Assembly (NCBI GenBank): GCA_007376135.1
Contig: VMFR01000001.1
Location: forward strand, 270,554-334,553
DNA length: 64,000 nucleotides
From: Parcubacteria group bacterium Gr01-1014_31
GTDB taxonomy: Bacteria; Patescibacteriota; Patescibacteriia; Buchananbacterales; GWA2-38-13
Direction: 5' to 3'
The first letter of the stretch is position 1, and each line of letters begins with the position of its first letter. The notes beneath the pieces are model-generated. The model was not told the DNA's origin, did not search any database, and saw only the letters and a program-made list of their open reading frames with translations. The position numbers and the translations under genes are program-made. Of this stretch, positions 3,075 through 26,898 are shown piece after piece.

Positions 3075-4934
3075 ATGCTCCCCCAGCGAAAATTCCTTTC
3101 CCGCTACTGGAAGAACGAGCGCGGCGCCATCGCGGCGATCTTTGTGTTCATCATGCTGGCGCAGGGCTTCTCGCTGTTGGAGCCCTACCTGTGGACCCGC
3201 CTGCTGGACGGCTTTCTCAAGGAAGTAACGGACCGCTCCAAGTTCCCGACCGAGGAAATATTCTTCGGGCAGGTCACCGGTATCGTGCTGTTCTGGGTTT
3301 CGGCGGCGCTGGCCTCCCGAACGGCAAAAAATATCCACCAATTCTACGCCACCACGCTGGCCGACCGCGTCGGCATCCGCGTTTTTCTGCATGCGTTCTC
3401 GCACGTGCTTTCCCTGCCAATGCGCTTCCACGCCAACGTCAAAGGCGGCGAGCTGTTCCGGAAGCTGACCAAGGCGCGCACCGACGTGACGGCGTTCCTG
3501 ACCACCTACTTTGAAAAGATCTTTCAAAACGCGTTCGCTATCGCTTTGGTCGCCGCCTACACGTTCATCCGCAACTGGCGGATGGGGTTGGCCCTGATCG
3601 TCTTTATCCCGCCGTTCCTGCTGGTGACCGCGTTGCTGACCCGCCGCATCCGGCACATTCAGAACCGCATCAACAAGGCGAACGAAACGCTGTTTGGCAC
3701 CACCGTGGAAGCCATCACCCACATTGAAGTGGTCAAGGCATTCGCCACGGCGTCCCACGAGCACCGGCTGGCCTCGCGCGACCACCGTATCGCCCACGCC
3801 CACGTGCAGGAACGCACCCGCGCCTACCAGATCCTGACGTTCACCCAGGGCACCATCATTAACCTGGCGCGCGTGACCATGATCTGGTACGGCGCGCTGC
3901 TCCTGTTCCGCGGCCAGCTGTCGTTCGGCGATCTGGTCCTCTTCAACATCTTCACCTTCTGGGTCTACCAGCCGCTCTACGAGCTGGGCGAGATCTACGC
4001 CAAGTATCAGGAGGGCGTGAACGCCGTGGAGCGCCTGCAGACGGTGCTGCGCGAACCGACCGATGAGGTCATCAGCGCATCGGCGGTCATTCCCGAAAAG
4101 CTGCGGGGCGACATCGAATTCCGCCACGTCGGCTTCACCTACGGCGACGAGCAGCGCGAGGTCCTGCGCGACGTGTCGTTCCGCGTCAAACCGGGACAAA
4201 AGCTGGCGCTGGTCGGGATGTCGGGTTCCGGCAAGACCACGGTGGTCAAGCTGCTGCTCCGCTTCTTTGCGCCGACCAACGGCCAGGTCCTGGTGGACGG
4301 GCGCGGCCTGCGCGACTACGACCTTGAGGCCCTGCGCAACCGCATCGGCCTGGTGATGCAGGACAACATCCTCTTCAACATGAGCCTGGCGGACAACATC
4401 CGCTACGGCACGTTCGATGCCACCGACGAGCAGGTCATCGCCGCGGCGCGGCGGGCGTACCTCGACGACCTGGTCGCCACGCTGCCCGACGGCTACAAGA
4501 CCCTGATCGGCGAGCGCGGCATCAAGCTGTCGGGCGGCGAGCGCCAGCGGGTCGCCATCGCCCGCGCCATCATCAAGCAGCCCGACATCCTCATCTTTGA
4601 CGAAGCCACCTCGGCCCTGGACTCCCGCTCTGAAGAGCTCATCAAGCGCGCCATCCAGGAGGTTTCGACCGGGGTCACGACCATCACGGTCGCCCACCGC
4701 TTCGCCACCGTCATGAACGCCGACGAGATCCTCCTTTTTGAGCGAGGACGCATCATGGAACGCGGGACCCACGGACAATTGCTAAAACGCCATGGGCGCT
4801 ACCGCGAACTTTTTGAACTGCAGACCCAGTACGGGGTAACCCTGGCTTCTCCCCGCAAACCGGAAGAACCGACGCTGGCGCCGGAACAGCTGAACGGACA
4901 CAACCATCCCCAGGGCGACGAAACCATGACTTGA
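3075..4934 (+). CDS. ABC transporter, fused permease/ATP-binding (type I exporter, MsbA-like)
   Basis: N-terminal 6-TM domain, Walker A GMSGSGKTT, signature LSGGERQRVAIARA, Walker B ILIFDEATSALD. Confidence 0.85.
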   Translation: MLPQRKFLSRYWKNERGAIAAIFVFIMLAQGFSLLEPYLWTRLLDGFLKEVTDRSKFPTEEIFFGQVTGIVLFWVSAALASRTAKNIHQFYATTLADRVGIRVFLHAFSHVLSLPMRFHANVKGGELFRKLTKARTDVTAFLTTYFEKIFQNAFAIALVAAYTFIRNWRMGLALIVFIPPFLLVTALLTRRIRHIQNRINKANETLFGTTVEAITHIEVVKAFATASHEHRLASRDHRIAHAHVQERTRAYQILTFTQGTIINLARVTMIWYGALLLFRGQLSFGDLVLFNIFTFWVYQPLYELGEIYAKYQEGVNAVERLQTVLREPTDEVISASAVIPEKLRGDIEFRHVGFTYGDEQREVLRDVSFRVKPGQKLALVGMSGSGKTTVVKLLLRFFAPTNGQVLVDGRGLRDYDLEALRNRIGLVMQDNILFNMSLADNIRYGTFDATDEQVIAAARRAYLDDLVATLPDGYKTLIGERGIKLSGGERQRVAIARAIIKQPDILIFDEATSALDSRSEELIKRAIQEVSTGVTTITVAHRFATVMNADEILLFERGRIMERGTHGQLLKRHGRYRELFELQTQYGVTLASPRKPEEPTLAPEQLNGHNHPQGDETMT

Positions 4935-5033
4935 CCGCGCTGCCGCCGCTGCATACAATAAAGGCGTCCTTTCCCCTTTTCCAATCCTCTCCATCCCCTA
5001 TCCCGAGGTTCATTTTTTTCTCCTCGTTTGTGC

Positions 5034-5073
5034 CCCGCACGTCACCTCACTGACGTGACGGGGCCTTTTCTTA
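5034..5073 (+). terminator. intrinsic terminator after ABC transporter gene
   Basis: hairpin ccccgcacgtcacc-tca-ctgacgtgacgggg followed by ccttttctt. Confidence 0.45.
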
Positions 5074-5103
5074 AAATGGACGTTTTGGGCTATTCTTACG
5101 GCT

Positions 5104-5979
5104 ATGACGGAACGCAATCGCCAACCTCGCCCGCGATTTCTGGCGAGCCTGCTGCATCGCGGGCTGGGAGTCGTTTCCCGCTGGCGGCTTGGCACTGGCG
5201 TCGCGCTGACTGCTGCCAGCTACCTGCTCGGACGGAAGCCGGGACTGTGGTGGTGGCAATTCACCCAGCGGTTCCACGTCCGGGCCCTGGCTGAACTGGC
5301 TGGCCCCGGCGACGTCGCGGTTGACATCGGCGCGGACGTGGGTTTTTTCACGCTTTTGCTCGCACGCCAGGTAGTACCGAAGGGCCATGTCTATGCCTTC
5401 GAACCCGAACCCAATAACCTTCGCGCGCTGACGGCCAACGTCCGCCGTTCAGGCCTCCGCAACATCACCATCGTTCCCGCGGCGGTTGCCAGCGTTTCGG
5501 GCACGCTGTCCCTCCATCTCTCCCCGGTGAATCCCGGCGACCATCGCATCATGCCGGCGGAAAACAAGCGCCGCACCGTTCCTGTCGCTGCCGTGTCGCT
5601 GGATGCCTACTTCCACGACAAGCCGGGCTCCATCAAAGTCATGAAGATCGATGTGCAGGGAGCTGAACTCTCCGTGCTTGGAGGCATGACAAAACTGCTT
5701 GCCGACCCCGCGCGCACCGTGGACTTGGCCATGATGATCGAATACTGGCCGTACGGCCTCCGCCGCGCTCGGGAAGAGCCCGCTGCGCTTTTGCATAGGC
5801 TCGTCGAAGCCGGTTTTACGCTCTCTCGCATTGATGAGCGCCAGCAAGGGCTCATCTCCCGAACGCCAAGCGAACTGAGCGCCGAGGTGGGCGAAGAATT
5901 CAGCGGCTACGTTGACCTCATCTGCCGCCGGACTACGGCGGCATCAACCGGATCACTTCCTGTTCGACCGGACCGATGA
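5104..5979 (+). CDS. FkbM-family SAM-dependent methyltransferase
   Basis: VDIGADVGFFTLL SAM-binding motif, YAFEPEP, MKIDVQGAEL motifs characteristic of FkbM family (TIGR01444). Confidence 0.75.
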   Translation: MTERNRQPRPRFLASLLHRGLGVVSRWRLGTGVALTAASYLLGRKPGLWWWQFTQRFHVRALAELAGPGDVAVDIGADVGFFTLLLARQVVPKGHVYAFEPEPNNLRALTANVRRSGLRNITIVPAAVASVSGTLSLHLSPVNPGDHRIMPAENKRRTVPVAAVSLDAYFHDKPGSIKVMKIDVQGAELSVLGGMTKLLADPARTVDLAMMIEYWPYGLRRAREEPAALLHRLVEAGFTLSRIDERQQGLISRTPSELSAEVGEEFSGYVDLICRRTTAASTGSLPVRPDR

Positions 5980-7225
5980 CGAACGTTCCCATCTCGTAGA
6001 GGGGGCGGATCTCGCAAGTCGGATTGATCGCGCACCCGATATTGTCCAGCCCTGCGGCCATGAGCATGAGGACCAGCAGGGTGAGCGCGGATTGCTGCAA
6101 GCGGGAAAGATACGGAGGCGGTCGGCTGCCCAACCGCAGCAGGTACACCAACAAGACGGCCTGCCAAGCACCACCGATACGGCTCAGATATTCCCCGGCA
6201 TAGTAATTACCGGATACCACGAACGCGGGAACAATAATGCTCACCGCGTAGAGGACGCCAATATGGAACGCCTGCCGACGCTGGTACCAATACGCTACCG
6301 TGACGAGCGGAATGCCAAGAATAACGACGAGGCGATAGGCCGCCCACTGGTTCCCCAGCCAGACGCTGAAAGGCGTCTGCATGCTGCTGACACCCCGCAG
6401 CCGCGTTACCCCCAGACTGCTTTCCAAATTGAACAACAGGGCTAGCGCGAAACAGGCGATCAGGGCAACGACGGCGACCGCGCCATGGCCCGCCAGCGTC
6501 CTGCGCTGCGCGCGGCGTTCGGACGCGGGGAGCAGCACCATTGCCGCAGCGCCGACGACCGCGAGGTTGATCAATTGCTGGTACGGGTGGGCGACGGCGC
6601 CCAGCACCAGCAGCGCACGGATGGTCAGGCGGTTACCGCCGGCCAGCAGCGCCGCCAGCGCCAAACCCGCGGCGAGCACGGAAAATCCGCGCGGCGCCGG
6701 TAGGAACGGATAGGTATGGAGGTGTAGCCAACCCAAAGCGATTCCAGACCCGATGAACCACGCCGGTGAAAGGGACAACCGCTGCCGGGTTGCCCAGCGG
6801 GCAGCAACGATCAGGACGACGAGCCACTCAATGGTCGGAACCACTAGCGCCCACGACACCAGCGGAACTCCGAAAAATCGCCGCAGGGGTTCGGCGATGC
6901 CGACCCGCAATACTACTAACGGCGAATAGGTCGTTGCCGCCGCCCGCAGCCGCGACCGCTGCACGTCGTCATCGAGCCGATCATAGGCCCGCCGGAGCTC
7001 ATCCGCGAGATCTTGACGATGCCCGCTCAATGTCTGCCATCCAACCCAGCCACCGAAGTAATACCGGAGATAATCATCCTGGTCAGTGAGGAGCGGGGAA
7101 ACGCGCAATAAAAATACGGTCGCAATGATCCAAACTGCGACCATCGCCAGCCGCTGGGAGCCCCCGGTTCCCCAGAGCGGCGTGCGTGCGGAACCCCCAG
7201 ACACCTCTCCCCCGAACTGCGGCAT
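5933..7225 (-). CDS. polytopic integral membrane protein (>=10 predicted TM helices), possibly glycan polymerase/glycosyltransferase-like; function unknown
   Basis: long hydrophobic segments throughout; ATG start; convergent 47-bp overlap with the upstream FkbM gene. Confidence 0.5.
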   Translation of the reverse strand: MPQFGGEVSGGSARTPLWGTGGSQRLAMVAVWIIATVFLLRVSPLLTDQDDYLRYYFGGWVGWQTLSGHRQDLADELRRAYDRLDDDVQRSRLRAAATTYSPLVVLRVGIAEPLRRFFGVPLVSWALVVPTIEWLVVLIVAARWATRQRLSLSPAWFIGSGIALGWLHLHTYPFLPAPRGFSVLAAGLALAALLAGGNRLTIRALLVLGAVAHPYQQLINLAVVGAAAMVLLPASERRAQRRTLAGHGAVAVVALIACFALALLFNLESSLGVTRLRGVSSMQTPFSVWLGNQWAAYRLVVILGIPLVTVAYWYQRRQAFHIGVLYAVSIIVPAFVVSGNYYAGEYLSRIGGAWQAVLLVYLLRLGSRPPPYLSRLQQSALTLLVLMLMAAGLDNIGCAINPTCEIRPLYEMGTFVIGPVEQEVIRLMPP

Positions 7226-15485: not shown

Positions 15486-16787
15486 CTAGCGCGGCCACTC
15501 CGGACCCTGGCGCACGAGCAGCTCTTGCGCGCGTTGCGGCTCGGCCATCAGTTCCTTGACGACACGCTCCATCCGCACCCCCTGCGACCCCTTGACCAAC
15601 AGCACGTCGCCCGGCTCCAGCCGGTCCTGCAGGAAACGCCCGGCGGTCGCCGCATCCGGGAACGTGAACACGCGCTCCTCCGGCATGCCGGCCTCACGCG
15701 CCCCACGCGCGATATCGCGGCTCAACTCGCCGACGGCGACCAGGATATCCGTGCGCGAGGTGGCGACCAGCGCCCCCAGCTCGCGGTGCGCTCGGCCGGC
15801 GATCCTCCCCAGCTCGAGCATGTCGCCCAAGACCGCGAACTTTTGTCCATCGCGGCTCGGAACGGAGTCCAGCAGCCGTACGGCGGCGGCGGCGGCCGAC
15901 GGAGAACTATTATAGCTGTCGTCAATGATGGCGCTGCGCTTGATACCGGGGACCAGGCGCGATCGGCCCGGCGGCGGTTGATAGGGGCTGGCCGCGGCAA
16001 CCGCGTCACGCAACCGCATTCCTTCCGCCACGCCAACGGCAATTCCCGCCAACGGCGCGTAGAGTATCGCCTCCCCCAGGACATTGGGCAGCGAGAGCGG
16101 CGCGATCTCCTCCTTGTACTGCACGGTGCAGGCGATGCCGCCGTGCAACCGTCCTTCCGCATCCGTCCCGTAGGTCGTGCGCACGCCGACGGCCCGCAAG
16201 AGGGCGCCTTCGCTCATTCCGTAGGTGATGACGCGCGCTTTGGTTTTCTTCGCCATGGCCGCGGCCAGGGGTTCGTCGGCGTTGAGCACCGCCGTACCGT
16301 CGGCGGGCAACGCGGCAACCAGCCTCCCCTTCTCGGCGGCGACTGCGGCCACGGTCTTCATCGTCGCCAGGTGCACCGCGGACACCGCGGTCACGACGGC
16401 AATCTTGGGCTGCAGAAATTCCACCAGGTAGGCCATATCCTGAGGCTTATCGACGCCCAACTCCAGCACCAGCCGCGCCGGATAGCGCCGGCGCGCGCCC
16501 CAGCCCTGCCGGATACCGTCCCACAGCACGGTCAGCCACCGCAACGGCGAGCGCAGACCGCTTTCCTGATCCAGCACCGCCAGCGGCACCCCCAATTCGT
16601 TGTTGTAGTTCTTGGGGCTGACCCGCAGCGAATCCAGGCTGCCCAGCACGAGCGCGATGGCTTGCACCGACGAAGTCTTGCCGACGCTCCCGGTAACGCC
16701 GATGACCGTCGGATGGTAACGGAACACAACCCGGCGCGCGAGCATGCGCAGGGCACGTTGGAGTGTGTGACGAATAACGGGGATCAT
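15486..16787 (-). CDS. murF: UDP-N-acetylmuramoyl-tripeptide--D-alanyl-D-alanine ligase
   Basis: Mur ligase P-loop GVTGSVGKTS, MurF-specific DDSYNSSP and LLVKGSQGVRMERVV motifs; last gene of dcw block. Confidence 0.75.
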   Translation of the reverse strand: MIPVIRHTLQRALRMLARRVVFRYHPTVIGVTGSVGKTSSVQAIALVLGSLDSLRVSPKNYNNELGVPLAVLDQESGLRSPLRWLTVLWDGIRQGWGARRRYPARLVLELGVDKPQDMAYLVEFLQPKIAVVTAVSAVHLATMKTVAAVAAEKGRLVAALPADGTAVLNADEPLAAAMAKKTKARVITYGMSEGALLRAVGVRTTYGTDAEGRLHGGIACTVQYKEEIAPLSLPNVLGEAILYAPLAGIAVGVAEGMRLRDAVAAASPYQPPPGRSRLVPGIKRSAIIDDSYNSSPSAAAAAVRLLDSVPSRDGQKFAVLGDMLELGRIAGRAHRELGALVATSRTDILVAVGELSRDIARGAREAGMPEERVFTFPDAATAGRFLQDRLEPGDVLLVKGSQGVRMERVVKELMAEPQRAQELLVRQGPEWPR

Positions 16788-16791
16788 ACCA

Positions 16792-18567
16792 CTACCGCTG
16801 CGGCGGCAATTGGAAGTAGTCTACCAAAAACTCGCCGAGCTGACGAAAGATGACGGTCGTGGAATCGGCGGCATGCTTGACCTTGGTCGGCCGATCCAAT
16901 TTCACCAGAATGACGAAGGCCGGCTTGTAGGCGGGGAAATACCCGATGAACGTGTGGTTGACCTCCTCGCCATAGCCGCCGGCGGGGTCGGCGATCTGGG
17001 CCGTGCCGGTCTTGCCGGCGACGTAGTACCCGTTCAGTTTGGCCTTGTGGTCGTAGGCACCCTCCAGGGCCTGCACCAACATCCCGGTCACCGTGCTGGC
17101 GGTACGGGACGTGATCACCTGGCGAATGGCCTGCGGCGCGGTTTTCACCACCGTGCCATCGGCATGCCGTCGTTCCGCAACGATGTAGGGTCGCATCAGC
17201 GTGCCATTGTTGGCCAGCACCTCGTAGGCGAGGGCAAGCTGCAACGGCGTGACGGTGATCCCCTGCCCGAAGGAAGCGGTCATGGCATAGATCTCGCCTC
17301 GCCGGTCCAGGCTGCTGATGTTGCCGGCCACCTCGGCGTCCAGCGTGATACCCGTCGGCTTGCCAAATCCGAAATCCTGCACGTAGCGGCGGAAGGCCTC
17401 CTTCCCCACCTTGGTGACCACATAGACGGCTCCGGTATTGAGGGATTTCTCCAGCACCTGCACCATGGTCTGTAGACCGTGCGCCTGCAGGTCGGAATTA
17501 CGGATGCGCTTGCCGTCCGCCAGCTTGATCTCGCCGGAATCTTCATACACGTCCTGGGGTTTCACCGCGCCGCGGTCGATCGCCGCCGCCATGGTGATGG
17601 GCTTGAAGACCGATCCGGGCTCGTAGGCTTCAAAAATAGCGGGATTGTTATAGACCGAGGGGTCCTTTGCTTCGGAGTACAGCACGGGGTCGAAATTCGG
17701 CACGCTGCACATCGCCAGCACCGCGCCGGTGGACGGCTGCAGCACGATGACCGTGCCGCCCTGCGCCGAGAATGTTTCCACACCCTGCCGCAGACGATCG
17801 CACGCGGCGATCTGCACCGCGCGGTCGACGGTCAGCACCAGGTCGTCGCCGTCCCGCGCCTCTTGCACGCTCCGTTTGCCAATCGCCAGCGGCCGCCCGT
17901 AGGCGTCCGCCACCCCGCGCTCGCTGCCGGCTGCTCCGGCCAGCTCACGCTCGAAGTACCCCTCCAAACCATACCGGCCGACCCGCCGGTCGTCGGAATA
18001 ACCGATAAACCCCAGCAGCTGGCCGCTGAATCCCGGTTCCGGGTAATACCGGTAGCTCTCGCGCACGTCCGTGATACCGGGCAGCGCCGCGGCACGGATC
18101 TTCTCGACCTGTTCCTTGGTCACCTTGCGCCACAAGGGTTCATACGGATCGGAACGGCGCGAAAGTTTCGCCGCGATCGACGGCCATTCCTCGGGCGTGA
18201 GGTCCAGTACGGTTGAGAGCGTATCCACGACCCGGCCGGGGTTGGTCACCTTGCTCGGATTGGCGACGACCAGATAGTAGGTGCGGTTGGTGACGATCGG
18301 GTACTCTCGGCCGCGCTCCCGCACGAAGATCGAGCCGCGATCCGGCTCCAGTTCGCGGTACGCGTCCTGCGCCTTGGCCGCCAAGCTCATAAAGTAGTCA
18401 TGCCGCACCACCTGCAGATAGAATAAACGCACGATGATGACCAGCGCGCACAAAAAAAAGACGGCGCCCAGCATCCAAGCGCGCCGTATGGTCGGATCGG
18501 TGACCAACCGTGCGTGCCGCGGCAGCATCGGCTGCGCTATCCCACGGCGGGGAGCGGCGTCCAGCAT
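16792..18567 (-). CDS. ftsI: peptidoglycan D,D-transpeptidase (class B PBP, FtsI/PBP2-like)
   Basis: N-terminal TM, dimerisation domain, transpeptidase SxxK (SVFKP), SxN and KTG (KTGTA) motifs. Confidence 0.9.
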   Translation of the reverse strand: MLDAAPRRGIAQPMLPRHARLVTDPTIRRAWMLGAVFFLCALVIIVRLFYLQVVRHDYFMSLAAKAQDAYRELEPDRGSIFVRERGREYPIVTNRTYYLVVANPSKVTNPGRVVDTLSTVLDLTPEEWPSIAAKLSRRSDPYEPLWRKVTKEQVEKIRAAALPGITDVRESYRYYPEPGFSGQLLGFIGYSDDRRVGRYGLEGYFERELAGAAGSERGVADAYGRPLAIGKRSVQEARDGDDLVLTVDRAVQIAACDRLRQGVETFSAQGGTVIVLQPSTGAVLAMCSVPNFDPVLYSEAKDPSVYNNPAIFEAYEPGSVFKPITMAAAIDRGAVKPQDVYEDSGEIKLADGKRIRNSDLQAHGLQTMVQVLEKSLNTGAVYVVTKVGKEAFRRYVQDFGFGKPTGITLDAEVAGNISSLDRRGEIYAMTASFGQGITVTPLQLALAYEVLANNGTLMRPYIVAERRHADGTVVKTAPQAIRQVITSRTASTVTGMLVQALEGAYDHKAKLNGYYVAGKTGTAQIADPAGGYGEEVNHTFIGYFPAYKPAFVILVKLDRPTKVKHAADSTTVIFRQLGEFLVDYFQLPPQR

Positions 18568-18579
18568 CGGGTCGGTGCG

Positions 18580-18951
18580 TTAGTTCCCGGCGCTCCCGGA
18601 CGGCGCGTAGCCGACCGGACCGGCGGCCGCGTTGACGTAGCGAACGTCATTGGCCGGCACCAGCTGCAGCGAGGAGACGCGCCGCTCGAGATTCTGGAAT
18701 GACTGCAGCTCCAGGGCCCGGCTCTCCAGGTCACGGGTTTCCAATCGCAGCTGATCGAGCTGGTCGCGCAGGGACTGCATCTGGTACCCCTTCGCCGCCA
18801 AGCTGTTGGCCTGCACCAGGTACGAAGCGAGCGCGAACAGCAACCCGCCAACGGCGACCGTACACCAGACCCGCGGGTTGAATGAGGGCAACGCCGCCGC
18901 CGTCGCTCCGGTCCCGCCGGTACGATGGTGCATCGCGTAGAAACGTCCCAT
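18580..18951 (-). CDS. ftsL: cell division protein FtsL/DivIC-like (septum formation initiator)
   Basis: single TM followed by coiled-coil LRDQLDQLRLETRDLESRALELQ; position between rsmH and ftsI. Confidence 0.55.
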   Translation of the reverse strand: MGRFYAMHHRTGGTGATAAALPSFNPRVWCTVAVGGLLFALASYLVQANSLAAKGYQMQSLRDQLDQLRLETRDLESRALELQSFQNLERRVSSLQLVPANDVRYVNAAAGPVGYAPSGSAGN

Positions 18952-18963
18952 AGGTTTTTGTGA

Positions 18964-19941
18964 TTATGTTTGTTTGATTAAAGGGGTTTGATTGAAAAGT
19001 CGTTGGGCGATCCGGAGCTTGGCGCTGCGGCTGCGGAAATTAGCAGCCACTTCGGCGTCACCCGGGACCACGGGCTTGCGGGTCACGACCGCGAGGTACG
19101 GCCCGCCGCAGGTACAGCGCGGCGCGTCACTGGGGCACCGGCAGGGCCGGGCATACTCGCGGAAGAACTGCTTGACGATACGGTCTTCCAGAGAGTGGTA
19201 GCTGATGACCGCGATCCGCGCCCCCGGCGGCAGGAGCGTCAGGGAGGAGTGCAGGGCGGCCTGGATATTCTCCAGTTCCTGGTTGACCGCGATACGCAGG
19301 GCTTGGAAGGTGCGGGTCGCCGGATGCCGGCGCGATGGTTTACCGTAGTGGTGGCGGTACACGCCCGCAACCACCGCGGCCAGCTGCGCCCCTTGGCGGA
19401 ACGGTTCGCGCTCGCGCAACCGGACGATGGCCGATGCGATCGGGCGCGCCAATGGCTCCTCGCCGTAGGTTCTCAAGACGTCGGCCAATTTGCCCACCGG
19501 CATGCGGTTCACCAGGTCCGCCGCGGTCGGTATCTCGGCCGTCGCATCGAAACGGAAGTCAAGACGCTCGGCGTCAAAGCCGAATCCCGCGTCCGGGGCG
19601 TCCAGCTGTAGCGACGATAGCCCCAAGTCCAACAGGCACCCGCCGCTCGGAGTGAATCCGAGCGTTCGGGCGACTTCCTCCATGGTTGTGAAATTGCCGT
19701 GCGCAACGAGCATCCGTTCCTTCATTGCGGGATCCTGAGAGATCACCTTGAGCCGCGCGACCGCGCTCGGGTCCCAGTCGATGGCCAGGACCTGTCCATC
19801 CGGCGCGGTGGCGGAAAGCAATGCCCGCGTATGCCCCCCGTTGCCGGCCGTGCCATCAATGAAATGCTTCCCGGGAGCGGCGGCCAGCCCGCTCACCACT
19901 TCCGCGACCAGCACCGGTTGATGGCCTTCAGGACGGGGCAT
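18964..19941 (-). CDS. rsmH: 16S rRNA (cytosine1402-N4)-methyltransferase
   Basis: HQPVLVAEVV..FIDGTAGNGGH..LDLGLSSLQLD motifs; internal ATG at 19939-19941 chosen (upstream 134 aa of the ORF is Arg/Gly-rich junk). Confidence 0.85.
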   Translation of the reverse strand: MPRPEGHQPVLVAEVVSGLAAAPGKHFIDGTAGNGGHTRALLSATAPDGQVLAIDWDPSAVARLKVISQDPAMKERMLVAHGNFTTMEEVARTLGFTPSGGCLLDLGLSSLQLDAPDAGFGFDAERLDFRFDATAEIPTAADLVNRMPVGKLADVLRTYGEEPLARPIASAIVRLREREPFRQGAQLAAVVAGVYRHHYGKPSRRHPATRTFQALRIAVNQELENIQAALHSSLTLLPPGARIAVISYHSLEDRIVKQFFREYARPCRCPSDAPRCTCGGPYLAVVTRKPVVPGDAEVAANFRSRSAKLRIAQRLFNQTPLIKQT

Positions 19942-20051
19942 ACCCCGTTCGACAATGGTCAAACATCGGTTTACTACCCGCCAAGAAATGAGGAGGCCAT
20001 TCGCAACTTGGGCACACTCCCCAACCGTCCATGGCCAAACGGGGCATAGCC

Positions 20052-20483
20052 CTACACTCCCAGCTCGCCCAGCGCTTCCGAAATTTCCACGCTCTTCCCT
20101 TCGGTCTGCTTCTTGTATTCGTTCCACTTGGCGGCGTCCCAGATCTCCAATCGGTTGTAGAGGCCGGCAATGACCACCTGCTTGCCCAATCCGGCGAACT
20201 GGCGCAAGTATTCGGGTACGCTGATGCGGCCCTGCCCGTCCGGGGAAACGTCCATCGCACCGGCCAGCATCAGCCGGGCGAATGCCCGCGTATTGGCCTT
20301 CGCCAAGGGCAACGCGGCCAGTTTCGCGACCAGCTTCCCCCACTCGGCCTGGGTGTAGACGAACAAACAGCTGTCCAGCCCCCGGGTAACGACCACGCCG
20401 CGCCGCAATACCGCGCGAAACTTCGCCGGCACGGCGATTCGTCCTTTTTCGTCAACGGAATGCTGGTATTCGCCGATGAACAT
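20052..20483 (-). CDS. mraZ: transcriptional regulator MraZ
   Basis: MFIGEYQHSVDEKGRIAVPAKFR duplicated MraZ domain signature; ATG at 20481-20483. Confidence 0.9.
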   Translation of the reverse strand: MFIGEYQHSVDEKGRIAVPAKFRAVLRRGVVVTRGLDSCLFVYTQAEWGKLVAKLAALPLAKANTRAFARLMLAGAMDVSPDGQGRISVPEYLRQFAGLGKQVVIAGLYNRLEIWDAAKWNEYKKQTEGKSVEISEALGELGV

Positions 20484-20524
20484 ACGCCGCTGCAATGTTG
20501 CTGAGATATCCACAAATTCGAGTC

Positions 20525-20600
20525 CTTCTCCCCACTTTTATCCACTTTTCACCACTATACCTACATTTTATACCACCACAACACCACTGTCAACCACTTT
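20525..20600 (-). promoter_or_regulatory. mraZ promoter (TTGACA/TATAAAAT on minus strand) with three 10-bp-phased GTGG[T/A/G] direct repeats (MraZ boxes) in the leader
   Basis: minus-strand reading ttgacagtggtgttgtggtggtataaaat then gtggtgaaaa gtggataaaa gtggggagaa. Confidence 0.45.
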
Positions 20601-20664
20601 CAAATAGCCAATTTTCCTCAAAATTAAGTCAAAAAAACACCATATCAGTCAAGATATGGTCCAA

Positions 20665-21655
20665 CCTGTGGATATGTGCACAGGTATCCCTTGACAACAT
20701 AATACACAGGAGTATGCTGCCAATATATGGCCAAGAGCGACAAGTACGGTATCTACGACCTGCGCAACGAGTTCCCCACGGATGACGCCTGTTTGGAATA
20801 CATTTTCCGGGTGTTACACAGCGAACGCTGCTCGTGTGGGGGCCGTTACAAACGGCTACCCGAACGGCGGCAGTGGCAATGTTCCAAATGCCGCTACCAG
20901 ATCGCCCCGACAGCGGGTACCCTCTTTGAAAAATCTGCAACACCCTTGACCAAGTGGTTTCACGCCTTATTCGTCTTTTCCAGTGCGAAAAGCGGCCTGT
21001 CGGGCAAGCAACTGGAACGGGAACTGAACGTTACCTACAAGACCGCTTGGCGAATGTTAAAACTTATCCGGGCGTCCCTCCCCAACAAAAAACACCGCCT
21101 GCTGGGCGATGTGGAGATGGACGAAACCTACTTTGGTGGGAAAGGTAACGCCGGGAAGAACAACCAGGACCTAGGCAAAGTGATGGACGATAAATCCGTT
21201 ATCCTTGGCGCGGTGGAGCGCGACGGGGAAATCCGGGCAGAAGTGGCCCCGAACGCCAAGGCGGCGACCATCGGACAATTCCTCCATACCAACGTGGAGA
21301 GGGTCAAAACGCGCCTGCTGACCGATGAGAGCAACCGCTACGACTTGGTAGCCAAGCGGTACCACCGCCAGAGCGTCAACCACTCACAACAGGAGTACGT
21401 GCGGGACGACGTACATACCAACACCATTGAGGGGTTCTGGTCGCACGTGAAGCGCAGCATCTCCGGCACCCACAAGGCCGTATCTAGGCGGTATCTCCAG
21501 TCTTACCTGGATGGCTTCGTCTGGCACTATAACAACCGGCACAGCGACAGGGACCGTTTTTCCGCCTTGCTTTACGGCCTGTTGCGATGACGTGGCGCAG
21601 GGCCTCGTGGAACTTGATTTTTTTACCCGATTGTTCCATACTGTGTAACAATACC
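20665..21655 (+). mobile_element. IS1595-family insertion sequence (boundaries approximate)
   Basis: single transposase ORF; imperfect terminal inverted repeats cctgtggatatgtgcacaggtatccc (20665-20690) vs ccatactgtgtaacaatacc (21636-21655); AT-rich relative to surroundings. Confidence 0.45.
20727..21590 (+). CDS. IS1595-family transposase (ISXO2-like DDE domain with N-terminal zinc ribbon)
   Basis: N-terminal CxxC...CxxC zinc ribbon (CSCGG...CSKC), conserved TDESNRY and NTIEGFWSHVKR motifs. Confidence 0.85.
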   Translation: MAKSDKYGIYDLRNEFPTDDACLEYIFRVLHSERCSCGGRYKRLPERRQWQCSKCRYQIAPTAGTLFEKSATPLTKWFHALFVFSSAKSGLSGKQLERELNVTYKTAWRMLKLIRASLPNKKHRLLGDVEMDETYFGGKGNAGKNNQDLGKVMDDKSVILGAVERDGEIRAEVAPNAKAATIGQFLHTNVERVKTRLLTDESNRYDLVAKRYHRQSVNHSQQEYVRDDVHTNTIEGFWSHVKRSISGTHKAVSRRYLQSYLDGFVWHYNNRHSDRDRFSALLYGLLR

Positions 21656-21659
21656 TCTC

Positions 21660-21689
21660 TTGACAGCAACCTTCAAGGTCTGGTACGAT
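21660..21689 (+). promoter_or_regulatory. sigma70-like promoter (TTGACA-18-TACGAT) abutting the IS right end, driving the downstream non-coding unit
   Basis: ttgaca at 21660-21665, tacgat at 21684-21689. Confidence 0.45.
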
Positions 21690-21695
21690 GATCGT

Positions 21696-22312
21696 GCTAC
21701 AAAATTGAATAAAAATCTCCGTAAACTTGCAACGGAGGGCCAGCAGCGCTGCTTGCGCACGAACAACCGCAAAGGTCAGTGCTCGAAGGGGAAGACCGCA
21801 AGGTCAACCCAACGAGCCGCAAGTCCGTTGGGTATCTACGAAAATAGTACCCGACGAGCGCTGGCCCTTGAGGTTGTTTTTTATAACGCAGCTTTACGGT
21901 CTAAGTCTGCACGCCAGCAGCTGGTGGTGCGCAGATCGGACCGTTAAGTCCGAGGGTCGCTTCGCCCGTCGCTCAAAGGTCGTTCTGGCAGTACATCCAG
22001 AGAGTGAAAAGAAGCAGAAATTAATGTACGGCCTGTGCCATACATTATTTACCAAGTCGGACGCGACGCTGAAACCGGTGAATTCCTCACCGTGGAAGAG
22101 GCGCGACGCCGACCAAGCACTGCGGTAGTGGAGACTATCCGCCGAAAGGTGTGATAGCATACCACTTCCCGCAAGTACCGTATCGGAGACCTACGTTTCC
22201 GGTAATCACAAAAGCCGCTGATTAAAGCGGCTCGGTGATCCAACTACTAACGATAGTTGGCGGTTTGTACAGCGATTTCCCCGTTCTCACGAACGGGGAT
22301 TTCGTTTTATTT
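21696..22312 (+). ncRNA. candidate ~600-nt non-coding RNA of unknown class (promoter to intrinsic terminator, no credible ORF)
   Basis: bounded by promoter 21660-21689 and terminator 22277-22312; contains four CCGCAAG(G)T repeats and multiple hairpins; moderate GC unlike flanking low-GC genes. Confidence 0.3.
22277..22312 (+). terminator. intrinsic terminator
   Basis: tccccgttc-tcac-gaacgggga hairpin + tttcgttttatttgg. Confidence 0.6.
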
Positions 22313-22357
22313 GGAATGTTGAGGGTAGCACCGCCTTAAATCCTTGTCAAGTGATTA

Positions 22358-22774
22358 CTAACCACCTAAATTCTCAATAATTCTTCTAAGTTTTGGCAAA
22401 ATTGCACCGGGGGGAGCACTCAATATTTCGCGCTTAATATTCTGCAGATCAGCATCGCATAAAGATCGGAGCATTTCGTAACCTTGTAAGGATGTCTCAT
22501 CATGATCTGTGTGGTGCAACATCGCTATACGTTCACGAAATTGTTCTGTGGTCAATCTGGTATATAGATAGACTGGAGAGTTCACATTTCTTGACGTACT
22601 TTGGGTTGGGGGCTGTGTCGAACGCCATTCATCTAGTCTTATGACTTGCCGTGAGGTTGCAACGTCCGGAATACATGCCAAAAAAATTATCCTTTCTTCC
22701 GGAACTGACCCTAAAAAAACATAGTCATTCTCTCCTTCGGTATCAGTTAGCCTAATTACGTTCCCGAATACCAT
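22358..22774 (-). CDS. hypothetical 138-aa protein, candidate toxin partner of the Panacea-domain antitoxin (possible HEPN-like Rx4H: RIAMLHH)
   Basis: ATG 2 nt downstream of the Panacea gene stop (translational coupling); low GC; no recognisable domain. Confidence 0.5.
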   Translation of the reverse strand: MVFGNVIRLTDTEGENDYVFLGSVPEERIIFLACIPDVATSRQVIRLDEWRSTQPPTQSTSRNVNSPVYLYTRLTTEQFRERIAMLHHTDHDETSLQGYEMLRSLCDADLQNIKREILSAPPGAILPKLRRIIENLGG

Positions 22775-22776
22775 AT

Positions 22777-23316
22777 CTACTTTAGGCTGACCAAAATTTT
22801 TATTTCTTCCTCAGTTATTTTACTATCATTATCAAGGGCGGCTAGAGAATAGGGTATTTCAGTTGGTTCTTTAGTATTAATCCATGCACTTTCACCATGA
22901 GATGCCTCGACGATATATTTTGTGTTTTTGTCGCTGAATCTCTGGCATACGTCCTTGAGAGTTTGCAATTCCCTCTCGGTGAAATATTCGTTATCACTTG
23001 CAGTGAACGGTTTCAGGCAGATAATTTTCTGAAAATTTCTACCATCAACAAACCTCACCGAAATCGTATCGGAGAGTAACGCTGTTTCCGGCTCATCTAT
23101 TACGCTATTAACAAGATTGAGAATATTTGATGGAACGGGGCCGCGCTCCAAATGAACATATCTATCGTAGGTAATTGGGACACCAAATTTTTTAACGTGT
23201 GTAAAATCAGCAAAATAAAAAAGTTTCATCAACTTCGTTTTTCCTAACAGATTAGGATCTGTATTGCTACAGAAAAACCTAATCATCGCCTTCAATTTTG
23301 TCCTTGGAATTCTCAT
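22777..23316 (-). CDS. Panacea-domain (DUF4065, SocA/GepA-like) putative antitoxin
   Basis: KLMKLFYFADFTHVKKFGVPITYDRYVHLERGPV matches the Panacea/DUF4065 core (KLxKLLYFAD...G.P....Y....GPV); GGGGG SD before ATG at 23314-23316; low GC. Confidence 0.7.
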   Translation of the reverse strand: MRIPRTKLKAMIRFFCSNTDPNLLGKTKLMKLFYFADFTHVKKFGVPITYDRYVHLERGPVPSNILNLVNSVIDEPETALLSDTISVRFVDGRNFQKIICLKPFTASDNEYFTERELQTLKDVCQRFSDKNTKYIVEASHGESAWINTKEPTEIPYSLAALDNDSKITEEEIKILVSLK

Positions 23317-23489
23317 TGGCACCCCCAACCACTAACAGGATAACACGATAATATTCTTTCTCCTAATAATACGACGACTTTAAGGCATTAATTCTATCAT
23401 AAATCCAATACAGTGTCAATATCTATGCATCTTAGTCATTTATTTCACTATTCTCCGCTCAACCCAGCAAAACAAAGTATGTTCGGGGG

Positions 23490-23518
23490 GGATATGGGCG
23501 GATATGTGCGGATATGTG
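23490..23518. repeat. tandem direct repeat, 3 copies of GGATATG[G/T]GC
   Basis: ggatatgggc ggatatgtgc ggatatgtg; same 10-mer as in the IS left inverted repeat (20669-20678). Confidence 0.6.
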
Positions 23519-23542
23519 AAAAAAAGTGGCGGCAGCCACTTT
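23518..23542 (-). terminator. intrinsic terminator for tsaB operon (minus strand)
   Basis: agtggc-ggca-gccact hairpin with A-run on plus strand (T-run on minus). Confidence 0.5.
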
Positions 23543-23569
23543 CTCGTCATCCGTTCTCGGGCGTGGCTC

Positions 23570-23947
23570 TCAGCGCTTTACGGTCACCTGCGGCTCGGAA
23601 AGATAGCGCGGATGGACCCAGGTAATGGCACGAGCGCGTTTTCCGGCCTGCGCGACAACCTCTCGGAGTGTTACCGACCGCACCGGCACCCCCCAAGCGT
23701 AGCTCAGGGCGTTACCGGCAACCGCGCCGGCGCGCAGTTGGGTGAACCCGGCGTGGCCGAGCGGGTCCTCAACCACGGTCACCACTTCGGGAACAGCGCG
23801 GCCGCGCAGCAAAGCGGCGACCAGTGGCAGTATGCGCTCCGTCCCGTGGAATGGCGTTGCCGCCGTCGCCCGAGCGATGACCCGACGGCCATCGAGCAGC
23901 AATGCGGTGACGCGCTGCGGAACGGTCGTATCAAGACGCAGTTCCAT
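23570..23947 (-). CDS. tsaB: tRNA threonylcarbamoyladenosine biosynthesis protein TsaB (short form)
   Basis: N-terminal ELRLDTT..LALLLDGRRV and FTQLRAGAVAGNALSYAWGVPV match YeaZ/TsaB N-domain; 125 aa truncated form. Confidence 0.65.
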   Translation of the reverse strand: MELRLDTTVPQRVTALLLDGRRVIARATAATPFHGTERILPLVAALLRGRAVPEVVTVVEDPLGHAGFTQLRAGAVAGNALSYAWGVPVRSVTLREVVAQAGKRARAITWVHPRYLSEPQVTVKR

Positions 23948-23958
23948 GCGTACCTCAG

Positions 23959-24591
23959 CTAGCGGATGCCATGGCGCAACCGGTCGATGACCACGATCTT
24001 TTTGTTCTCCAGGATGGTGTAGAGGAACTTGTCGGTGATGTTGTGGCGGTAGCGGAACTCAGCGACGGTCATCACTGTGTAGTTGATGGGGTGATCAAGC
24101 TCGCGCTCGAACTGCCCCATCAGGCGCGCCAAACGCTTGCGGTTGACGGTCCCGACCAGCAGCAGATCGGTACTAAAACCTTCCAGGCCGACGAACATCC
24201 CGGTCAGCACCAACAGCTGGACGGACGCGATGTTCTTGATCCGCTCAATGAGCTTCTGCTCCACGAGCAACTGCGCCTTGACCAGCAACGCCTTGAGCTC
24301 CGGATACAGAAGGAAGCTGGAATTGGCGAGGTAGAATTTCTTCAACTGCTTGCGCACCCGGACCTTGCGCGCCGGCTTGGCTGCCTCCTTGCTGCCGGGA
24401 AGCACGCTGGGCGACAGCATCGGACTGATAATGCCGATGCTTTCAAGGTTGGCGACCTCCCGCCGAACCGAATTCAGCTGGACGTGGATCGCCCGCGCCA
24501 GTTCGCGCAGGTAGTAGGGCTGCTCCGGGTTATTCAAAAACCGCTGCAACAGTTTAACACGGGTGGTTGAACCAAATAAGTGTTCAAGCAT
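23959..24591 (-). CDS. winged-helix DNA-binding protein with uncharacterised C-terminal domain
   Basis: N-terminal wHTH (STTRVKLLQRFLNNPEQPYYLRELARAIHVQLNSVRREVANLESIGII); internal ATG at 24589-24591 chosen, upstream part of ORF is antisense junk. Confidence 0.5.
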   Translation of the reverse strand: MLEHLFGSTTRVKLLQRFLNNPEQPYYLRELARAIHVQLNSVRREVANLESIGIISPMLSPSVLPGSKEAAKPARKVRVRKQLKKFYLANSSFLLYPELKALLVKAQLLVEQKLIERIKNIASVQLLVLTGMFVGLEGFSTDLLLVGTVNRKRLARLMGQFERELDHPINYTVMTVAEFRYRHNITDKFLYTILENKKIVVIDRLRHGIR

Positions 24592-24663
24592 AAGGATTGG
24601 CCTGACCGCGAACGGCGAATATAGTATACTATAGCCATTCCCCAACCGACAAACCCCCCATCC

Positions 24664-26898
24664 ATGGACCGCTACCTCGCCAAGATCACCACCCTGCAGG
24701 TGGACCCCGCCCACGGGGGTTCCGCCGGCAAAGTATTCGTCGGCAAACCAACGCTCGAGAAAGAAATTGCTGCGGGCAAGCTTTTCGGTTTTGCCGAGCT
24801 GACCGGAGCGCAACCCGAAGGCACGAGCCTCGTGGACCAATTGCTGGATGAAGCGAAGGACGAGCTCTACCAGACCGGAGCGATACGCCGCGCCGGCGGA
24901 CTCACCCCTGCCGCTGACCTGGAGGAACGCTTTGGACAGGTGCTCCAACACGTCAACGGCGCGGTGGCGACCTTTCTGGAAACCCACCGCACCGGCACGG
25001 ATTTCCAACAAAGTTCCATACTGTTGGGCAACATCCGCCAGCAGCAACTGGTCATTTCCACGGTCGGCCGCGTGACCGGTTACCTGTTCCATTACCGGCC
25101 GACGCACGACTACCAGACGGTGACCATCACCGAACCGACGCCCGGGGTTTCGGTCAACCCGTTGCGGCTGTTCACGCAGACCATCGCGGGCAGCCTGGGC
25201 CCGCTGGACACCGCCATGTTCTGCTCCGACGGACTGCTCGACTACCTGTCGCTCCATACGCTGAAAACCACCGTGACTGGCAACGCCGGCCCGGATGCCG
25301 TGCGCCAGCTCAAGACCGCGCTTTTGCGCGCGCGGCCCAAAACTCCGGCGGTGGCCATCATTATCAGCCTGGTATTGCATCGGCCCGCGCCGCTCCCGCT
25401 GAGTCTGAAAAATTTTGACTACCTGGGCGCCGCATCGCGCGATTCCATGCGGACGCTCGCCCACACCCAGCGGCAAACCAGCCGCGTGCTGACCCCCCGT
25501 CTGCTGCCGGACGTGCAGAAATTCTGGCACTGGCTGCAGGAAACCGGCCAGCGCTACCGCCAGCGCGTCCACGACCGCCGTCCATCGCGCCCTGCTCCCA
25601 ACGCGCCGGTGCTCCCCGTTCCCCCGCCGACCCCGCCGCCGCGCCCATCCCATTCGGCACTACGGAAGGTTTCCGCCTTCACGGCAACCACCACGCGGCG
25701 CGCATTCACTCATCCGGTGGTCAAAACCGCCGGGGCGATGGTCGCGACGCTGGCGGCAAACATTTGGCGCCGCTACCGGTCGTGGTCATGGAAGCGGCAG
25801 CTGGCCGTAGCCGGCAGCCTGGTGTTGGCCGTCCTGCTGGTCTGGAACCTGGCAACGCTCTCCGGCCGGCGGGCCGTAACCGCCCGCGAGAAGGCGTTCG
25901 CGACCGTGCTGGCGCAAGCGGAGCGCCTGCGCGACGCCGCGCAGGCTTCCCTGATCTACCAGGACGAAACGGGTGCGCGCGAACGGCTCAACGAAGGCCT
26001 GCGCATCCTGGACCAGCTGCCGGAAACATATGCGGCGCACCCGACGGTCGTGCGAACGCGGCGCGAGCTGAACACCAAGCTCAATGAGCTGCGCCATGAA
26101 GTGGTCATTGCCGACCCGCTGCAGCTGGCAAATTTCAACAACCTGGATGACGACGCGCGCGCTGCGCCGACCATGGTGCGCCTGGGAGAGCGTCTCTATG
26201 CCCAAAATGCGCGGTCAAAGGTCTTTTTTACCCTTAACTTGGGCAACCGCTCCATCGCCGAGATCCAACCGTCCACCGCCCTTGAGGGCACGCTGAATTC
26301 GGCGACGGCCCTGTCGCGGACCGCAGCGGTGCTTCTGGACGATGACGGCCGCGTCCTGCGCCTCGACGGCACCGACCAGATCCGGCCGCTCCCGCTCACG
26401 CTCCCGGGCGGTAACGCCGTCGCGGTCGCCAGTTTCCGCGAGCGGCTGTACCTGCTATCCGCGGTGTCGGGCACCATCTTCCGGGCCGATCCGGCGGGCG
26501 GAGGATTCGGCGCCCCGCGCAACTGGATCGCCGACCCGAGCGTCGACCTGCGCACCGCCACCGACCTGACGCTGGACGGCGACCTGTATGTGCTGCTGCG
26601 CGACGGCGGCATCGTCAAGCTCAACCAGGGCCGCCCCGTAACGTTTGACCTGCAGCCCATCGATCCGCCGCTCTCCGGACCGACCAAGATAAAAACGTCT
26701 GAAGCGTCGGCCTACCTATACCTGCTGGACCCGCCGACGAAGCGCATCGTGGTCGTCGGCAAGGACGGCAAGCTCGCGCGGCAGTACCGTTCGGCAGCGT
26801 TCGACGAGCTGCGCGACATCGTTGTGGACGAAGCGGCAAAAACCATCTACGTGCTGAATGGTGCCCGCCTCTACGGCGTGCCGATGGAACACCTGTAG
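24664..26898 (+). CDS. large hypothetical protein (744 aa): N-terminal domain, Pro-rich linker, single TM, C-terminal beta-rich repeat domain
   Basis: Pro-rich PVLPVPPPTPPPRP linker, TM LAVAGSLVLAVLLVWNLATL, C-terminal repeated LDGDLYVLL/TIYVLNG segments. Confidence 0.55.
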   Translation: MDRYLAKITTLQVDPAHGGSAGKVFVGKPTLEKEIAAGKLFGFAELTGAQPEGTSLVDQLLDEAKDELYQTGAIRRAGGLTPAADLEERFGQVLQHVNGAVATFLETHRTGTDFQQSSILLGNIRQQQLVISTVGRVTGYLFHYRPTHDYQTVTITEPTPGVSVNPLRLFTQTIAGSLGPLDTAMFCSDGLLDYLSLHTLKTTVTGNAGPDAVRQLKTALLRARPKTPAVAIIISLVLHRPAPLPLSLKNFDYLGAASRDSMRTLAHTQRQTSRVLTPRLLPDVQKFWHWLQETGQRYRQRVHDRRPSRPAPNAPVLPVPPPTPPPRPSHSALRKVSAFTATTTRRAFTHPVVKTAGAMVATLAANIWRRYRSWSWKRQLAVAGSLVLAVLLVWNLATLSGRRAVTAREKAFATVLAQAERLRDAAQASLIYQDETGARERLNEGLRILDQLPETYAAHPTVVRTRRELNTKLNELRHEVVIADPLQLANFNNLDDDARAAPTMVRLGERLYAQNARSKVFFTLNLGNRSIAEIQPSTALEGTLNSATALSRTAAVLLDDDGRVLRLDGTDQIRPLPLTLPGGNAVAVASFRERLYLLSAVSGTIFRADPAGGGFGAPRNWIADPSVDLRTATDLTLDGDLYVLLRDGGIVKLNQGRPVTFDLQPIDPPLSGPTKIKTSEASAYLYLLDPPTKRIVVVGKDGKLARQYRSAAFDELRDIVVDEAAKTIYVLNGARLYGVPMEHL

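Follow-up and report, generated by a model that had tools for sequence, protein, structure and literature searches.

In this study, a 64,000-nucleotide (nt) stretch of the Parcubacteria group bacterium Gr01-1014_31 genome (contig VMFR01000001.1, positions 270,554 to 334,553; hereafter the window) was found to carry a two-gene cassette in which a Panacea-domain gene, panA, is followed by a small open reading frame (ORF) for a protein of 138 amino acids (aa), ORF138, and we consider it likely that this cassette is a toxin-antitoxin (TA) module of a PanA-neutralised MazF/CcdB-superfamily toxin, where toxicity, neutralisation and complex formation are what we infer. Kurata et al. (2022, PNAS, PMC8832971) defined Panacea, an antitoxin domain that they call hyperpromiscuous. 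The 179-aa product of the upstream gene had been assigned to this domain in an earlier sequence-only reading of the window, and a hidden Markov model (HMM) search upheld the assignment: PanA, which includes the sequence KLMKLFYFADF...LERGPVP, matches PF13274 (SocA_Panacea) at E=5.2e-19 and 69.7 bits (cut-off 25.7), with residues 29-145 aligned to model positions 1-112 of 113. The tight two-gene arrangement described in that reading is also real, with the panA stop codon TAG (22779-22777) followed by two nucleotides, AT, and then by the ATG of ORF138 (22774-22772), and this 2-nt gap makes it probable that the translation of the two genes is coupled. Since homologues begin with M(K/R)IP in the alignment, the panA start is placed at the ATG at 23316 rather than at the alternative TTG at 23328, which would give a protein of 183 aa. 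From the promoter-like and terminator-like sites on either side (Table 1), the cassette looks like a transcription unit of its own.

The pairing of the two genes is conserved in other genomes, whichever gene is taken as the starting point. Six genomic contexts were collected with homologues that are 25-61% identical to ORF138 by BLASTP (P0001, P0034, P0042, P0043, P0046 and P0025), and a Panacea gene lies directly upstream of the ORF138 homologue in 6/6 of them, with flanking genes that differ in all six, glycosyltransferases, an integrase, a GHMP kinase, IF-2/SWIB and a methylase-Mrr fusion among them. Starting from the antitoxin side, a PanA alignment was used to scan GTDB species, each represented by one genome, and gave 80 loci, all of which were translated and searched with HMMs of the PanA and ORF138 families. 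PanA identity is at least 38% in 62 of the 80, nearly all of them from metagenome-assembled genomes (MAGs) of Patescibacteria, or candidate phyla radiation (CPR), together with a few labelled Bacteroidota, 'Gammaproteobacteria' or Nanoarchaeia; four of these 62 loci stop at a contig edge just past PanA, leaving 58 that are informative. The ORF138 family or its remains were found directly downstream on the same strand in 58/58 informative loci (51 intact copies, one cut by the contig end and six disrupted), and in the intact copies the gap between PanA stop and ORF138 start is -17 to +17 nt. The published working definition of a PanA TA-like locus comprises a gap of at most 100 nt, conservation in at least two species and the absence of a longer conserved operon, and the panA-ORF138 pair agrees with it in its gap, in its conservation between species and in the limitation of that conservation to the two genes. 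Recurring in dozens of genomes, the two ORFs are thus not a chance pair.

The closest counterpart, in the P0001 context (locus L001), has its ORF138 homologue 2 nt after the Panacea gene, as in the window, and is located in a low-GC island of a high-GC contig at an unrelated chromosomal position, with DNA similarity to the window restricted to panA and ORF138. The window PanA shares 81% identity with that of L001 and 44-60% with those of other Patescibacteria loci. Between the window and L001, the proportions of nonsynonymous and synonymous differences (pN/pS) are 0.11/0.75 for panA and 0.25/0.82 for ORF138, indicating that both genes are under purifying selection, with synonymous sites saturated.

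Some further loci were observed in the same collections. The Parcubacteria MAG JAZDPK01 holds two diverged panA-ORF138 modules (L010 and L030, with PanAs 60% and 50% identical to that of the window), and one copy (L157, 827-3414) lies directly after a fused N6/N4 methylase-Mrr_cat gene, in a restriction-like or defence-island context. The remaining 18 loci of the PanA scan (L071-L088), with PanA identity of at most 36%, come from Chloroflexota, Nitrospirota, Planctomycetota, archaea and others, and have other downstream partners. In L072, L075, L082 and L087 (Nitrospirota, Desulfurellales, Sulfurimonas) the partner belongs to a family of about 138 aa without a Pfam match, which is MazF-like by eye and may correspond to T8, one of the clusters of PanA-linked toxins (PanTs) of Kurata et al.; hhalign of the ORF138 family against these four partners gave a probability of 5%, with only the C-terminal helix aligned. 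Two more unrecognised partner families, of about 115-139 aa, also accompany distant PanAs, as does, in L083, a protein carrying a Fic motif (HPFxxGNGR).

The statement of the sequence-only reading that the 138-aa ORF has no recognisable domain holds for every collection searched: Pfam, NCBIfam, PADLOC and PHROGs gave nothing significant. A word-indexed search returned a single close homologue, P0001, 61% identical and from a Patescibacteria MAG, and phmmer, run exhaustively over 1.8 billion cluster representatives, yielded 41 proteins at E<1e-3, mostly of 124-141 aa, which align over the full length and share the recurring motifs FGD, YVFLA, LTTExFxxRxAH and LNxxDxxxIKxEIL; 37 members of the family scanned against Pfam gave no meaningful match to any family. 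A scan of genome contigs with the single ORF138 protein gave no match, and no ORF138 homologue was found in phage and plasmid collections or in IMG/VR, the searches of which returned only distant PanAs (28-36% identity) and one 57-residue fragment match at 51%. Three long proteins, P0009 (1486 aa), P0012 (781 aa) and P0026 (585 aa), match ORF138 in 6-8 separate stretches, the best being the C-terminal helix (residues ~110-137) for the first two and residues 36-74 for the third, and these matches are probably repeat or coiled-coil noise.

The alignment of these homologues made a structural prediction possible. With two sequences, AlphaFold modelled ORF138 at a predicted local distance difference test score (pLDDT) of 51.7, and with the 41-sequence alignment it gave five models at pLDDT 88-90, the best with a predicted template modelling score (pTM) of 0.81. 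The model runs through three strands, a long helix, three short strands, a helix at 107-119 and an extra helix at 127-136, and shows an SH3-like barrel with a C-terminal helix, as in MazF, PemK and Kid. In a Foldseek search of PDB, 35 of the top 36 matches are MazF chains, the exception being CptN at rank 22, with probabilities of up to 1.0 yet E-values of only about 0.02, and among viral models the top named matches include PemK-like proteins and endoribonucleases. Because of these matches of a high-confidence model, ORF138 is predicted with good confidence to have the fold of the MazF/CcdB/ToxN toxin superfamily.

Several observations, however, weigh against a PanA-neutralised toxin of this superfamily. 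No match to PF02452 was found for ORF138 at E<=1 or in 37 relatives at E<=0.1, and a profile of the ORF138 family run against all PDB sequences found no MazF or CcdB. With hhalign, only the C-terminal helix was aligned, at a probability of 0.5% against MazF/Kid/EndoA and of 0.2% against CcdB, both of them thin profiles; the MazF/Kid/EndoA alignment was made of three sequences (MazF of E. coli, Kid, and EndoA of B. subtilis), confirmed with PF02452 at E 1e-24 to 1e-38, and given such thin comparison profiles a full-profile HHpred search might still link ORF138 to MazF. Residue conservation, counted over 87 full-length family members, also appears unlike that of a canonical MazF. Near-invariant positions are G4, L21, A33, I35, L74, T76, I117 and L129, together with D109 (87/87), so that T76 and D109 are the only near-invariant polar residues. 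MazF carries its catalytic Arg in a long beta1-beta2 loop (GxExxGxRP), and its R29 and T52 do not vary across the MazF/Kid/EndoA alignment, whereas the beta1-beta2 hairpin of the ORF138 family has only 2-7 residues and no conserved Arg, leaving the MazF catalytic loop without an apparent counterpart. Finally, a MazF-like PanT of T8, taken from F. xanthum, had no toxic effect in E. coli (PMC8832971).

The short beta1-beta2 hairpin would imply either a chemistry unlike that of canonical MazF or action by binding, as in CcdB. That ORF138 acts as an RNase can be put forward tentatively, with somewhat less than even confidence, part of the remaining confidence going to some other activity or to a non-toxic protein. 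Alternatively, the same operon may encode a CcdB-type stoichiometric poison of a protein target such as DNA gyrase instead of an RNase; this is a possible but somewhat unlikely reading, which the loss of the catalytic loop would suit and to which the CcdB profile comparison lends no help. It is also conceivable, if rather unlikely, that the ORF138 family, centred on Patescibacteria, has branched off from the MazF/CcdB scaffold, has lost the MazF catalytic loop, uses a target or chemistry different from those of MazF and CcdB, and travels as addiction or defence cargo of IS1595-type elements; if true, this would amount to a PanT toxin of new function from a phylum with essentially untested TA biology.

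The decay of the two genes is asymmetric. ORF138 is disrupted beside a full-length PanA in 6/58 loci, by in-frame nonsense codons in L014 and L039 (TAA) and in L056 (TGA), by a frameshift in L043, which is the isolate genome Parasediminibacterium sp. JCM 36343, by an internal deletion in L026, and in L053 by a tRNA-like sequence that replaces everything after residue 17. Disruption at 6/58 for ORF138 against 0/62 for PanA (Fisher p=0.011) is the pattern expected of a toxin, which can be lost safely, unlike its antitoxin, but PanA was the bait with which the loci were collected, a bias that makes the comparison no more than supporting evidence and that belongs with the points against a toxin module listed above. 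The same decay bears on the reading that the locus is not a TA system and that the partner encoded by ORF138 lacks toxicity, being for example an SH3-like barrel protein that binds nucleic acids or has a regulatory role and works with PanA; we regard this alternative as improbable.

For a PanA-neutralised toxin, we propose the following course of events. One promoter would drive panA first and ORF138 second, and with translation of ORF138 probably coupled to that of panA the antitoxin would be made at least as fast as the toxin. ORF138, as a diverged member of the MazF/Kid/CcdB/ToxN structural superfamily with a predicted fold and presumed toxicity, would be held inactive by direct binding of PanA, by analogy with other PanA-PanT pairs. 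If PanA were lost or displaced, by proteolysis, by loss of the element or possibly by phage infection, free ORF138 would arrest growth. It could do so by cleaving RNA as an endoribonuclease, in the manner of MazF, Kid and ToxN, or by stoichiometric poisoning of gyrase or another protein, in the manner of CcdB. The cassette arrived horizontally on or beside an IS1595 element, and it may keep that element in place by addiction or have a role in defence. Rather than sequestering ORF138 stably, PanA could be a proteolytic adaptor that delivers it to ClpXP, as SocA does for SocB, and the Pfam family of PanA is indeed named after SocA; yet tested PanAs are reported to form complexes with their toxins, pointing to direct neutralisation (PMC8832971), and the adaptor model appears quite improbable. 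As for the earlier suggestion that RERIAMLHH is an Rx4H motif of a HEPN-type RNase, R82-x4-H87 is present in the window ORF138, but position 87 is His in 19/87 members, the top residues at position 88 are N16, K15 and R12 rather than His, and the predicted model is beta-rich instead of all-alpha, so that neither motif conservation nor fold agrees with it and the suggestion is ruled out for practical purposes. In the same stretch R82 is kept in 61/87 members and H85 in 50/87, the window ORF138 having Met at position 85.

The coordinates of the features are collected in Table 1.

Table 1. Features of the panA-ORF138 cassette and the surrounding insertion (window positions)
Feature	Position	Strand	Remarks
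panA	22777..23316	-	179-aa Panacea-domain (DUF4065/SocA-like) protein, presumed antitoxin; TAG stop included
ORF138	22358..22774	-	138-aa partner, presumed toxin; predicted MazF/CcdB-like barrel with extra C-terminal helix; stop included
Operon promoter, sigma-70-like	23391..23419	-	TTGACA-17-TAGAAT with TG extension; 11/12 consensus positions, consensus match only
Terminator-like hairpin with T-run	22212..22233	-	~125 nt downstream of ORF138; pattern match only
Insertion, 2.85 kb, between mraZ and a 125-aa gene	20675..23519		Absent from L089 (blastn)
Left junction direct repeat	20669..20678		TGGATATGTG
Right junction	23486..23518		Three tandem 10-nt copies GGATATG(T/G)G(C); the last, CGGATATGTG at 23509-23518, matches the left repeat
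IS1595-family DDE transposase, 287 aa	20727..21590	+	PF12762 E=2.4e-36, NF033547 E=1.3e-53; tail-to-tail with ORF138
Structured segment, ~600 nt	21690-22315	+	Between the IS1595 transposase and ORF138
Spacer promoter-like site	21660-21689	+	10/12 consensus, with TG
Spacer terminator-like hairpin	22278-22299	+	

Horizontal acquisition next to an IS1595 insertion sequence (IS), claimed in the sequence-only reading, is backed by low GC content and by a close relative in which the site is empty. The insertion, regarded as a recent arrival of a mobile segment, contains the IS1595 transposase, a spacer of about 750 nt with a structured segment, and the panA-ORF138 operon. The relative L089 (GCA_030648715.1), whose RsmH is 92% identical to that of the window, is collinear with the window on both sides of the insertion at 87-89% DNA identity, with window position 20674 aligning to L089 7700 and window position 23520 to L089 7682. 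The next named RsmH relative, at 58% identity, comes from a Patescibacteria bacterium, and the host is accordingly a probable member of a high-GC CPR lineage. GC content within the insertion is 33-57%, against 60-69% in the flanks. The earlier reading had put both genes at about 35% GC in a genome of about 65%, which was right in direction and off in its values, panA being at 37.6% and ORF138 at 42.2% in a window of 60.1%. A Logan contig (L090, SRR8863434) is 100% identical to window positions 16727-25590, and its public gene calls are blank over 4864-6844, with neither panA nor ORF138 called, probably because these are low-GC genes within a high-GC genome.

The empty site in L089 reads TGTGGATAGATGTG, and the 9-nt sequence GGATATGTG is found at both junctions of the insertion, once on the left and triplicated on the right. 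These repeats are consistent with a target-site duplication, and the copies possibly reflect more than one insertion event at the same spot; IS1595 elements typically produce 8-bp target duplications. The tail-to-tail arrangement of an IS1595 transposase and ORF138 was also found in three diverged loci (L095 1848-3755, L056 2989-4940 and L061 57-2018), with spacers of about 60-130 nt, that of L095 being 63 nt beside a transposase 63% identical to that of the window. This recurrent pairing suggests that the TA cassette is a cargo or preferred neighbour of IS1595 elements. No convincing terminal inverted repeats were found around the transposase and the cassette together, local alignment of the ends giving only weak matches of 10-18 nt in the window, and no inverted-repeat candidates are common to L095, L056 and L061, so that the cassette may be IS cargo or a frequent neighbour.

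The spacer between the transposase and ORF138 is strongly structured in the window. On the plus strand its minimum free energy (MFE) is -272 kcal/mol, compared with -201 +/- 5.9 in dinucleotide shuffles (z=-12.2); the minus strand has z=-9.5 and adjoining 300-nt windows are near 0. The spacer carries several GNRA-type hairpins. No Rfam match was found for 21690-22315 at E<=1, none of the spacer ORFs is credible or has a Pfam match, and no spacer homologue was found in 156 fetched loci, in phages, in plasmids, or in two exact-pattern scans of viral contigs. Being absent from other panA-ORF138 loci, the spacer is not part of the TA module; it could represent either a large, new non-coding RNA or a mobile remnant rich in hairpins.

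The partner had been put forward as a strong candidate for a previously undescribed toxin domain. What stands of this is an unannotated, PanA-linked family; the fold is predicted to be that of MazF/Kid/CcdB/ToxN, and because PanA with MazF/PemK-like toxins has been published, the kind of system is already known (PMC8832971). The picture of how PanA systems work is unchanged. New here are a sequence-divergent, database-unannotated and CPR-centred partner family, as far as comparison with T8 by description goes, and its association with IS1595. In the Kurata data set, which is RefSeq-derived, the available part of the text holds no Patescibacteria entries (PMC8832971), and our literature search found no paper joining Patescibacteria, toxin-antitoxin and DUF4065. 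The Panacea antitoxin network thus gains a sizeable unannotated partner family, with 41 cluster representatives and 58/58 informative loci, placed in Patescibacteria/CPR, where genomes are tiny, the lifestyle is episymbiotic and TA and defence functions have hardly been examined. The locus also offers a clean case of a TA cassette arriving with an IS element while the empty site is kept in a sister genome, and the way in which a profile of metagenomic homologues turned an 'orphan' ORF into a confident MazF/CcdB-fold prediction is of interest in itself.

Compared with known systems, the cassette shares with each of them some parts and not others. In the Caulobacter SocAB system, SocB is a DnaN-binding toxin and SocA a ClpXP adaptor, a role reportedly established by Aakre and colleagues in 2013; SocA carries PF13274 like the PanA described here, whereas the predicted MazF/CcdB-like fold of ORF138 is unrelated to that of SocB. 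Type III systems (ToxN, CptN, AbiQ) have a tandem-repeat RNA antitoxin upstream of the toxin, whereas a protein gene, panA, lies upstream of ORF138; a type III ToxIN/CptIN/AbiQ reading was tried and rejected, as Tandem Repeats Finder (TRF) finds no repeat array in 22775-23330 and panA fills that space. CcdAB differs in having no sequence similarity to ORF138, another antitoxin and another C-terminus. With MazEF, Kis-Kid and PemIK, ORF138 shares the predicted fold, in the order of three strands, helix, three strands and C-terminal helix, and, by eye, an N-terminal G-D motif and a C-terminal 'IKxxI' helix. It differs from them in having no PF02452 match and in being paired with PanA instead of MazE or Kis, and from MazF in the apparently missing beta1-beta2 loop that bears the catalytic Arg (R29 in E. 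coli MazF), in a longer first helix and in the extra C-terminal helix at 127-136.

The nearest published counterparts are the PanA pairs with MazF/PemK-like toxins. PanT clusters T5, T6 and T8 consist of proteins annotated as 'hypothetical' that HHpred matches to PemK/MazF/EndoA/CcdB at probabilities of about 99% (PMC8832971, Dataset S1), encoded after PanA at gaps of -8 to +5 nt, and two of the three clusters have been experimentally validated, with the MazF/PemK-like PanTs of P. moraviensis and B. ruminantium shown to inhibit translation (PMC8832971). The cassette differs from these pairs in that MazF was found there by HHpred at about 99%, whereas no sequence method run here links ORF138 to MazF, and in that the ORF138 family is centred on Patescibacteria MAGs. 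The family does reach a few Bacteroidota genomes (L025, L043 and L065), and because T8 is rich in Bacteroidota with similar gaps, the ORF138 family may belong to T8, a cluster known here by description and not by sequence. In common with the T5, T6 and T8 pairs, the Panacea antitoxin comes first and is followed within a few nucleotides by a small unannotated partner that is MazF/PemK/CcdB-like in its (here predicted) structure, and the module is mobile, with neighbours that change from genome to genome.

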